From a virus (lineage: Duplodnaviria; Heunggongvirae; Uroviricota; Caudoviricetes), in the IMG/VR virus record IMGVR_UViG_2579778535_000003: a stretch of 5,702 bases of DNA. One strand, given 5' to 3'. Positions 1,391-1,857 of the stretch are shown piece after piece (positions within the stretch are counted from its first letter, which is position 1; every line of letters begins with the position of its first letter). A model generated the notes under the pieces. That model saw only the letters and a program-made list of their open reading frames with translations, searched no databases and was not told the DNA's origin. Made by a program: the position numbers and the translations under genes.

Positions 1391-1418
1391 AAATAAAAAA
1401 GCCTTCACTGCGGAAGGC
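1391..1418 (-). terminator. Rho-independent terminator on the minus strand
   Basis: Minus-strand RNA reads GCCUUC-cgcagu-GAAGGC followed by UUUUUUAUUU: 6-bp GC-rich stem, 6-nt loop and U-tract. The stop codon of the upstream small ORF (1405-1407) lies inside the stem. Confidence 0.6.
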
Positions 1419-1602
1419 GTCTGTAACAACCGAACTGATAATCTGCCAGACCCGCCATAACAAGCTGGGTCAGTATTAACTGGCAGCGTTCACGTGAAAG
1501 GTAAGTATTCTGCGCAATTTCCCCGACGGTCGCCGGTTCGGTGACGCTTAATTCATTAAACACCACTCTGGCGGTTTCGGTCATATCCTGCTGTTTTAGC
1601 AT
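1405..1602 (-). CDS. Small hypothetical protein (about 65 aa) with a possible helix-turn-helix
   Basis: Track ORF 1405..1782, but the GTG at 1782 and the upstream codons run through a terminator-like hairpin and the divergent promoter. ATG at 1600-1602 (MLKQQDMTETARVV...) is preceded by the purine-rich aagggaaaaaggc. The segment TVGEIAQNTYLSRERCQLILTQL looks HTH-like. Not recognised as a named family. Confidence 0.45.
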   Translation of the reverse strand: MLKQQDMTETARVVFNELSVTEPATVGEIAQNTYLSRERCQLILTQLVMAGLADYQFGCYRRLPQ

Positions 1603-1725
1603 GCCTTTTTCCCTTTTCTGGTTAACGTGACATACCAATAACTCTTGTCGAAAAAGCCAGCAAGCTGAAAGACCAGTATTCGCAACCACCAGCGCGTTTA
1701 ACGTACTTCGCCGATTTTCGGGCAC

Positions 1726-1746
1726 AAAAAAACCGCTCATCGGCGG
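1726..1746 (-). terminator. Weak terminator-like hairpin on the minus strand (4-bp stem CCGC/GCGG, 6-nt loop, then U7)
   Basis: Plus strand aaaaaaa-ccgc-tcatcg-gcgg; on the minus strand the hairpin is followed by seven U. The stem is short, so the call is tentative. Shares a 13-nt core with the hairpin at 5556-5574. Confidence 0.3.
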
Positions 1747-1795
1747 GTTTAAGCTGTGTGGCGAAGTAACCACTCTTAACACGATACAATAATTT

Positions 1796-1824
1796 TTGCG
1801 TACGCGTTAGCGCTTTTGTATATT
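1796..1824 (+). promoter_or_regulatory. Sigma70-like promoter for the plus-strand two-gene operon
   Basis: TTGCGT (1796-1801), 17-bp spacer, TATATT (1819-1824), about 34 bp upstream of the ATG at 1858. The TTG at 1816 used by the ORF track lies inside this promoter. Confidence 0.5.
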
Positions 1825-1857
1825 CAGCTTAATCCTATGTATTTATGGAAAAATAAG

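Follow-up and report, generated by a model that had tools for sequence, protein, structure and literature searches.

Genes for DNA modification in phages, such as mom of phage Mu, need tight control. In Mu, the Com protein binds the mom mRNA and opens a structure that blocks its translation (PMC6483171), and homologues of Com precede adenine methyltransferase genes in Mu-like prophages (PMC3299994). The pR'-tR' late leader of lambdoid phages yields a short terminated transcript, StxS (PMC7547250). The winged helix of DprA does not bind DNA and recruits ComM (bioRxiv 10.1101/2024.10.21.619469), and, according to the account of PMC3597690 that is given in PMC4489622, the DprA protein of H. pylori stimulates a methyltransferase. 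Here we compare with these systems a small open reading frame (ORF) in a 5,702-nt stretch of a Caudoviricetes genome (IMG/VR record IMGVR_UViG_2579778535_000003; the whole stretch that was analysed is called the window). In the minus-strand direction, the window corresponds to the late-regulatory region of a lambdoid prophage.

A sequence-only reading of the window had noted an ORF of about 65 codons, predicted a helix-turn-helix in its product, and proposed it as the local regulator of a divergent pair of cargo genes. The ORF itself (1405-1602, minus strand; ATG at 1600-1602, TGA at 1405-1407; 65 aa) is as described, and the helix-turn-helix was recovered as part of a winged helix in a predicted structure. 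The assignment to the cargo fared differently. We conclude that the small stand-alone winged-helix protein is probably encoded by the first gene of a conserved late methyltransferase module and serves the methyltransferase, although this judgment stands well short of certainty. Most likely, the protein controls expression of the methyltransferase or acts as its adaptor, and the cargo is not regulated by it. As reconstructed from the loci compared below, the module consists of a tR'-type terminator, a 5' untranslated region (UTR), the ORF, a hairpin at its stop codon, a leader of ~150 nt and a gene for a beta-class N6-adenine methyltransferase, and is followed by tRNAs, stx or lysis genes. The ORF family is already catalogued with no function assigned: its members are annotated as 'hypothetical' or 'TrmB family regulator' (in RefSeq, 'TrmB family transcriptional regulator'), and our literature searches returned no account of the function of the ORF. 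What appears to be new is that, in several phage groups, the ORF has a DNA methyltransferase and a structured leader RNA as its fixed partners.

Genes that travel with the small ORF

We conclude from sequence comparison that the small ORF is a protein-coding gene under purifying selection, because it matches the family phrog_331 (E 1.4e-37), has 334 homologous clusters, nearly all from Enterobacteriaceae, and shows low nonsynonymous divergence from other genera (pN 0.08-0.18) compared to saturated synonymous divergence (pS 0.6-0.87). A Shine-Dalgarno-like AAGGGA (1610-1615, minus strand) lies 8 nt before the ATG, and an AAGG-type motif is retained at this position in other genera. A longer form of 125 aa, starting from a GTG at 1782, was rejected; it is not conserved and would cross a terminator.

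The neighbors of the ORF were compared in 106 loci, comprising 104 fetched loci with an ORF relative (24 species genomes and 80 viral contigs), phiP27, and one Stx2a phage, in which the window proteins were located by tblastn. Downstream of the ORF, the window encodes a DNA methyltransferase of the N6/N4 type (205-1254, minus strand; 349 aa; PF01555, E 2e-44; MTase_II, E 1e-159). A methyltransferase start lies ~150 nt past the ORF in every sufficiently long locus, with the exception of L020 and L037. This linkage persists at 65% ORF identity in Providencia and at 53-55% in Mixta, Mangrovibacter, and Scandinavium, and the same order of ORF and methyltransferase gene is found in phiP27, SfV, mEp460, and Hafnia and Providencia phages. 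The two exceptional loci contain decayed modules. In L037 (6215-7048), only a truncated leader is left and an AraC-like gene has taken the place of the methyltransferase, and in L020 (6174-6565), the ORF is truncated, the methyltransferase is missing, and the leader is intact. A third locus, L023, carries a premature stop in the ORF, with leader and methyltransferase intact.

The cargo consists of two plus-strand genes that encode a 343-aa protein (1858-2889; phrog_3482) and a 179-aa multi-pass membrane protein (2882-3421; phrog_16807). Neither gene received a Pfam, NCBIfam, or PADLOC assignment, and both PHROG families are of unknown function. As a local helix-turn-helix regulator, the small protein would bind the shared spacer (1603-1857) and control these divergent genes. 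Consistent with such a role, the ORF and the cargo diverge in the window, the protein has a winged-helix fold, and a plausible cargo promoter, TTGCGT-17-TATATT (1796-1824, plus strand; read by eye), lies within the spacer. The pattern of inheritance argues strongly against it. The cargo is present in only 2 of the 106 loci. Among 5426 complete E. coli genomes, the ORF and leader occur in 4043 places in 2138 genomes, compared to 15 places in 14 genomes for the cargo, and the ORF and cargo are adjacent in only 8. In five further E. coli genomes, the match is limited to the cargo and the block at 1728-1857; in the one of these that was examined, ECO20, the antiterminator gene Q, the cargo, and the 1728-1857 block lead directly to the holin gene, and both the ORF and the methyltransferase are absent. 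Conversely, the ORF is conserved in thousands of cargo-less prophages, and also in phiP27, SfV, mEp460, and other genera, an outcome that the sequence-only reading had itself named beforehand as counting against a cargo regulator. In phiP27, a GIY-YIG gene replaces the cargo. The ORF therefore tracks the methyltransferase and is not co-inherited with the cargo, and, as described next, a module joint falls between the two. Regulation of the cargo by the small protein is thus very improbable.

The spacer between the ORF and the cargo gives the same picture. The ORF does point away from the cargo, across 255 bp (1603-1857; about 250 bp had been claimed), but this interval is not an empty shared control region: it contains a block shared with phages of the same Q type, a tR'-like terminator, and the conserved 5' UTR of the ORF. 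The terminator (1726-1750, minus strand) has a CCGC/GCGG stem (1733-1746) and a run of seven U residues (1726-1732). Starting with the cargo, the window is identical to ECO20 as far as this hairpin; the two show a few differences in its loop and U-tract and diverge beyond it, whereas the matches of the window to SfV and L003, which have other Q genes, start just after it. Because one alignment breaks at the terminator and the others begin beyond it, we place the recombination joint between a Q/cargo module and an ORF/methyltransferase module at 1726-1750. The same comparisons group the cargo with Q and the late promoter region and assign the ORF to the methyltransferase, whose side of the joint begins with the ORF 5' UTR (1603-1725, minus strand). 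The alignments show this module to recombine as a block, independently of the cargo and of the Q type.

On the other side of the joint, the block at 1751-1822 (minus strand) travels with the Q type and is a candidate for the late promoter (pR') and early transcribed region. It is common to SfII, mEp460, and cdtI phages and to L015 and L026, whose Q is 88-90% identical; L003, whose Q is only 55% identical, shares much of it too. In ECO20, this Q-linked block lies directly upstream of the holin gene. No -35 and -10 hexamers of pR' could be placed by eye in 1751-1857, and the promoter scan lists none there. The candidate cargo promoter (1796-1824) overlaps the Q-linked block, the probable site of the minus-strand late promoter, and mutual interference could occur. 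The cargo is also found in the Stx2a phages 1447 and WGPS2, and in every examined locus it separates the Q gene from the late promoter block and runs on the opposite strand.

The leader RNA upstream of the methyltransferase gene

The ~150-nt spacer between the ORF and the methyltransferase gene is conserved far above the synonymous sites of the flanking genes, with an identity to the window of 0.61-0.82 across genera, while pS is 0.6-0.87. A coding explanation was considered unlikely in view of single-base insertions and deletions and of a pattern of change that corresponds to paired covariation. RNAalifold and single-sequence folds point to structure (z = -3.4 for the window), and the G-U pairs are compatible with the sense strand only. 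In the alignments described below, the leader (1255-1400, minus strand; covariance-model match 1274-1388) is shown as a covarying three-way-junction RNA with competing helices. Its predicted elements are a closing helix, P1 (UGGGC at 1379-1383 with GCCCA at 1307-1311), a long hairpin, H1 (1367-1378 with 1348-1359), a middle hairpin, M (1341-1346 with 1318-1323), and a hairpin after the junction, H2 (1299-1305 with 1287-1293).

This structure is 92% paired in a MAFFT alignment of 23 lambdoid leaders, and 10 pairs have changes on both sides; no shuffle attains these values, and slid controls reach at most 44%. A covariance model built from this structure found every leader in 61 loci (E 1e-31 to 1e-4) and accepted zero false decoys that matched by pattern only. 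In the covariance-model alignment of 48 distinct sequences, 92.8% of the cells are paired, 25 of 28 pairs are changed on both sides, and the covariation score, in this model-fitted alignment, is 0.413, whereas shuffles score 0.122 and slid partners no more than 0.094. Searches for loci with the methyltransferase alignment returned close relatives only, and distant loci were obtained by tblastn on phage records and with a degenerate DNA pattern. About a third of the distinct sequences matched by this pattern were false and were rejected by the covariance model.

Two alternative helices use some of the same bases. Helix a pairs AUGGGCG with CGCUCAU and is 98.6% paired, with one-sided changes only. 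Helix c (1321-1330 with 1255-1266) is formed by GGUCACAAGC and the 11 nt that immediately precede the methyltransferase AUG, bases that it would cover; it is 96.3% paired and has 3 pairs with changes on both sides, and slid controls reach at most 40%. Helix c competes with helix M, which is better supported. Because helices a and c draw on bases that P1 and M also use, two exclusive folds are possible, one of which would hide the start region of the methyltransferase. No Shine-Dalgarno motif is present within 15 nt of the methyltransferase ATG. The start context, CTGATCTATG (1252-1262, minus strand), is nearly invariant; a GATC (Dam) site is part of it, as is an in-frame TGA that precedes the ATG by two codons. 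Rfam gave no match at E ≤ 1 for the whole window or at E ≤ 10 for 1200-1870, and literature searches gave no description of the leader RNA.

The leader is not confined to lambdoid phages. The model also found it in N15, phiKO2, Yersinia P840, VHML, Vibrio phage ST2-1pr, and contig L242. In N15, phiKO2, and Yersinia P840, an annotated late promoter and terminator precede the leader. The gene upstream in these phages, gp51, encodes a remote homologue of the ORF product (hhalign probability 93%, E 3.4e-7), and hidden Markov model matches lie at an unvarying distance of ~139 nt ahead of the leader. By way of this remote homologue, the module is shown to extend, at the level of gene order and profile similarity, to telomere phages. 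In ST2-1pr (L194, 1358-1468) and L242 (5170-5367), Com-like zinc-ribbon ORFs that score 26.2 and 24.6 bits, respectively, against the PF10122 cut-off of 22.9 lie between the leader and the methyltransferase gene. The L242 enzyme is a ParB_N-N6_N4_Mtase fusion, and in ST2-1pr a hairpin covers an AGGAGG motif ahead of the methyltransferase start. Across the phages in which we found it, the leader is tied to methyltransferase operons that head late transcripts, with the winged-helix gene as its frequent, not obligatory, companion.

Late-transcript position and the hairpin at the stop codon

As a fallback, the sequence-only reading had allowed that the ORF might be an ordinary first late gene, which is essentially its correct position, though an incomplete description. 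The ORF is on the same strand as, and downstream of, Q (3443-3796, minus strand; PF06530, E 1.5e-45), the late promoter region, and the tR'-type terminator, and it is upstream of lysis, tRNA, or stx genes. The order in phiP27 and Stx2 phages is ORF, methyltransferase, tRNAs, and then stx, and in SfV and mEp460 it is ORF, methyltransferase, and then holin. A GC hairpin with a U-run is found 50-150 nt 5' of the ORF in most of 24 diverse loci, with stems that differ and covary, and in SfV, whose copy of the small ORF is orf47, a terminator is annotated between this gene and Q. Because of these upstream terminators and the downstream gene order, we regard the ORF as the first gene beyond a tR'-type terminator.

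This position suggests how the module would be expressed. In a lysogen, transcripts from pR' would halt at 1726-1750, and the resulting short transcript would be a counterpart of StxS-type RNAs. Upon induction, polymerase modified by Q would pass both this terminator and the hairpin at the end of the ORF (1391-1418), so that the ORF product and the methyltransferase would be co-produced as early late products. The leader, with its two exclusive sets of helices, would then be a likely gate on translation of the methyltransferase, by a logic like that of com-mom, because one of the two sets would cover the methyltransferase start region.

The hairpin itself (1401-1418, minus strand), with a U6 tract (1391-1400), had been described as a strong terminator that closes off a discrete unit. 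Hairpin and U-tract are real, as judged by the terminator scan, but the stem is of moderate strength only (six bp, -8.9 kcal/mol, z = -2.2), and the unit is not discrete, since the hairpin is continuous with the conserved leader and the methyltransferase gene. Moreover, the U-tract is degenerate or poor in most genera outside Escherichia and Shigella, which implies that termination at 1391-1418 is not a conserved property. The hairpin overlaps the end of the ORF: its 5' arm is coding sequence, the last codons form part of it, and the TGA stop sits where the loop meets the 3' arm. The stem covaries in relatives, and the lambdoid sequences inspected keep the stop codon within the loop. In addition, pairing is possible in the region 1385-1430 (minus strand) between Cys-Tyr codons near the ORF end (GUUAYA) and a CUGUGRA that immediately precedes the leader; in many relatives, this would embed the stop-codon hairpin in an extended stem. 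The conservation of the ORF at its C terminus may therefore be due in part to an RNA constraint.

The placement of the stop codon raises the alternative that the act of translating the ORF is of greater importance than the protein made. A ribosome at the stop codon would melt the hairpin and couple transcriptional read-through to ORF translation, for which pyrBI-type coupling provides a model. Both the position of the stop codon in the loop and the coding 5' arm of the hairpin fit this idea. However, strong purifying selection on the protein sequence shows that the product is needed, and the winged-helix fold is conserved. Moreover, the N15-type homologue ends ~105 nt before the terminator, and Q-modified polymerase would ignore the hairpin anyway. 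Coupling of this kind is compatible with the other readings, but as the main role of the ORF we consider it improbable.

The remaining features of the window surround this late region. The methyltransferase gene is followed on its 3' side by genes for tRNA-Met(CAU) and tRNA-Lys(UUU) (2-155, minus strand). The tRNA-Lys/tRNA-Met site is the slot of ileZ-argN-argO and stx in Stx phages, and the tRNA set varies among otherwise similar prophages (Gly/Thr in strain PSJ-22). Upstream of Q on the minus strand are rusA (3777-4148) and a DUF968 gene (4161-5207). A sub-threshold match to the isrK family of Hfq-binding small RNAs (5557-5637, minus strand; 25 bits compared to a gathering score of 50, E 0.02) lies upstream of these DUF968-rusA-Q genes.

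The winged-helix protein and its relation to known systems

An AlphaFold model of the protein shows a core of three helices that contains a helix-turn-helix, and then a beta-hairpin wing, the features that define a winged helix-turn-helix. The model was made from a deeper alignment that takes in a second subfamily, and it supersedes a model from a shallow alignment of 26 sequences, all at least 80% identical, which had a pLDDT of 65 and gave meaningless Foldseek matches. Every Pfam match of the window protein is below threshold: TrmB (PF01978) reaches 18.0 bits (cut-off 25.6), MarR_2 14.7 bits (cut-off 27), and DprA_WH (PF17782) 14.4 bits (cut-off 22.9). The best E-value of any family member with TrmB is 1.8e-4, and the model lacks the helices that flank the winged helix in MarR proteins. 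DprA_WH is the most consistent neighbor: 23 of the 35 family members match it, with a best E of 5e-6, and precomputed annotation assigns this domain to a few members. A profile search of 1.8 billion representatives returned only 97 clusters, almost all of which are stand-alone proteins of 60-110 aa; one match was the C-terminal winged helix of a DprA (E 8.6e-5), in which the third-helix motif reads CQMTLTQLELIGL, compared to CQLILTQLVMAGL in the window protein. The window protein contains only two cysteines, C40 and C59, and does not match the Com zinc ribbon (PF10122). We had also regarded the invariant third helix as a sign of a conserved nucleic-acid target, and dropped this argument on finding that the conserved positions are mostly in the hydrophobic core.

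The winged helix could mark a conventional DNA-binding transcription factor, whose target would lie in its own module, as in autoregulation at 1635-1663, elsewhere in the phage or host, or at the late promoter. The weak TrmB and MarR matches are in line with this role, as are a conserved block upstream of the ORF and the location of gp51 in N15 and phiKO2, where the annotated late promoter follows it at ~40 nt. The conserved block, TTGCTG-N17-TAYNTG (1635-1663, minus strand), lies within the ORF 5' UTR, 35-60 nt 5' of the ORF, and is conserved across genera and has promoter-like spacing; its candidate roles are those of an internal promoter, an operator, and an mRNA element. A canonical sigma-70 promoter was sought there by eye and not found, the last position of the -10 being G, and the promoter scan lists nothing; a sigma-54 reading of the conserved upstream sequence is off by one base. 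We also dropped an anti-Shine-Dalgarno pairing in the 5' UTR (CUUUUUC with GAAAAAG), which lacks conservation in other genera. Against a transcription factor, the protein has only 65 aa and no dimerization element, its charge is near neutral, its Pfam scores are sub-threshold, and no conserved dyad was seen, although no systematic search of the spacer was made. Furthermore, the upstream Q/pR' region recombines freely and therefore cannot be the target. Overall, we find a conventional transcription factor possible, though unlikely.

A further alternative is a stand-alone winged helix of the DprA type that acts by protein contact, either as an adaptor or activator of the methyltransferase or as a mimic that engages the host ComM/YifB helicase. 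The consistency of the DprA_WH matches, the precomputed DprA_WH domains, and the retrieval of a DprA winged helix with a related third-helix motif all point this way. So do the properties of the DprA winged helix, which binds ComM and not DNA, and, as reported at second hand, the H. pylori precedent cited above, and a hydrophobic third helix together with neutral charge would suit an interface. This assignment is tempered by the score of the window protein below the Pfam threshold, by the difficulty of distinguishing winged-helix domains by sequence or fold, and by the fact that this methyltransferase family works without the protein in other phages. We therefore regard a DprA-type contact protein, taken as a complete account, as rather doubtful.

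Our preferred reading remains a winged-helix protein that serves the methyltransferase of its module. Within it, we infer three candidate modes of action: binding to DNA inside the module, binding to the leader RNA, and contact with the enzyme. The link to DprA favors contact, because the DprA winged helix recruits ComM and acts without DNA binding, because of the H. pylori precedent, and because the protein here has a near-neutral charge and a hydrophobic third helix. In its most specific form, which we put forward tentatively as one possibility that may well prove wrong, a DprA-like protein would flip the leader between folds with a hidden and an exposed start, or would act on the enzyme, and would thereby time methylation to late infection, as a winged-helix counterpart of Mu Com.

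Several points weigh against the preferred reading. The protein combines a near-neutral charge (about -1 net by our own count) with a very hydrophobic third helix, features unusual in a nucleic-acid binder, and no palindromic operator was seen, although no systematic dyad search of the spacer was made. VHML and L242 have the leader and no detectable homologue of the ORF, which implies that the RNA does not need this protein, and phiO18P-type phages (P2-like, from Aeromonas) have a related methyltransferase with neither leader nor ORF. The covariation score comes from an alignment that is fitted to the model and leans towards structure; the MAFFT figures are weaker, though still above the controls. 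Dependence of ORF expression on Q is deduced from position, and the block at 1635-1663 could be an internal promoter of the ORF. Finally, the functional roles assigned here to the protein are putative.

These findings bear on how such loci are read. Divergent placement next to moron-like cargo does not make a gene the regulator of that cargo. The gene family is very common, being present in 2138 of 5426 complete E. coli genomes (~40%) and in many Stx phages, phiP27, SfV, and mEp460. The more valuable result is the RNA in the spacer between ORF and methyltransferase gene, which covaries strongly over ~115-150 nt, has two competing folds, lacks an Rfam match, and is common to lambdoid, N15-like, VHML-like, and other Vibrio phages. 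The transcript that yields Shiga toxin in Stx phages has the module directly in its path. The module would represent a second, widespread, and testable solution to the control of phage DNA modification, and if a winged-helix counterpart of Com is indeed involved, it would be present in about 40% of complete E. coli genomes, as well as in lambdoid, telomere, and Vibrio phages.

Compared to known regulators, the small protein stands apart in several ways. Like the controller (C) proteins of restriction-modification systems, it is a small helix-turn-helix protein encoded beside a DNA methyltransferase; however, C proteins have an Xre-type helix-turn-helix, bind C-boxes, and time the restriction enzyme, whereas a winged helix is found here. 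No endonuclease gene is present in the window or in relatives, and neither a C-box nor an Xre fold is found here. TrmB proteins have a C-terminal effector (sugar-binding) domain and a dimerization coiled coil, and MarR proteins, of ~140 aa, have N- and C-terminal dimerization helices around the winged helix. By contrast, the protein here lacks effector and dimerization domains and is about half to a quarter of the length of TrmB, MarR, and ArsR factors. Across its family, the C-terminal winged helix of DprA (PF17782) is the best Pfam neighbor, with which it has the third-helix motif LTQLxxxGL and the fold in common, but it stands alone instead of being fused to the Rossmann domain of DprA, and it falls below the family threshold.

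The locus resembles the lambdoid pR'-tR' leader in having a terminator shortly downstream of the Q region and before the first late genes, but an StxS-type transcript would correspond to about 1726-1800, whereas the ORF lies beyond the terminator and codes for protein. N15 and phiKO2 provide the closest match in gene order, with a remotely homologous winged-helix gene (gp51, annotated as 'winged helix-turn-helix domain-containing protein'), a terminator, the same leader, a methyltransferase of 56-61% identity, a terminator, and a holin gene. In these phages, however, the late promoter is between gp51 and the terminator, which places gp51 outside the late transcript, whereas the window ORF is downstream of tR' and has its stop codon inside a hairpin.

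Com-mom of Mu differs in its components. The protein here is a winged helix and not a CxxC...CxxC zinc ribbon, its RNA binding is only putative, its ORF lies upstream of a ~150-nt three-way-junction leader instead of overlapping its target, and the enzyme is a beta-class N6-adenine methyltransferase and not Mom. Nevertheless, the arrangement is similar: in both, a small ORF immediately precedes a DNA-modification gene in a late transcript, and a predicted RNA structure covers the start of the modification gene. Moreover, in ST2-1pr and L242, Com-like ORFs occupy the position between this same leader and the methyltransferase gene.

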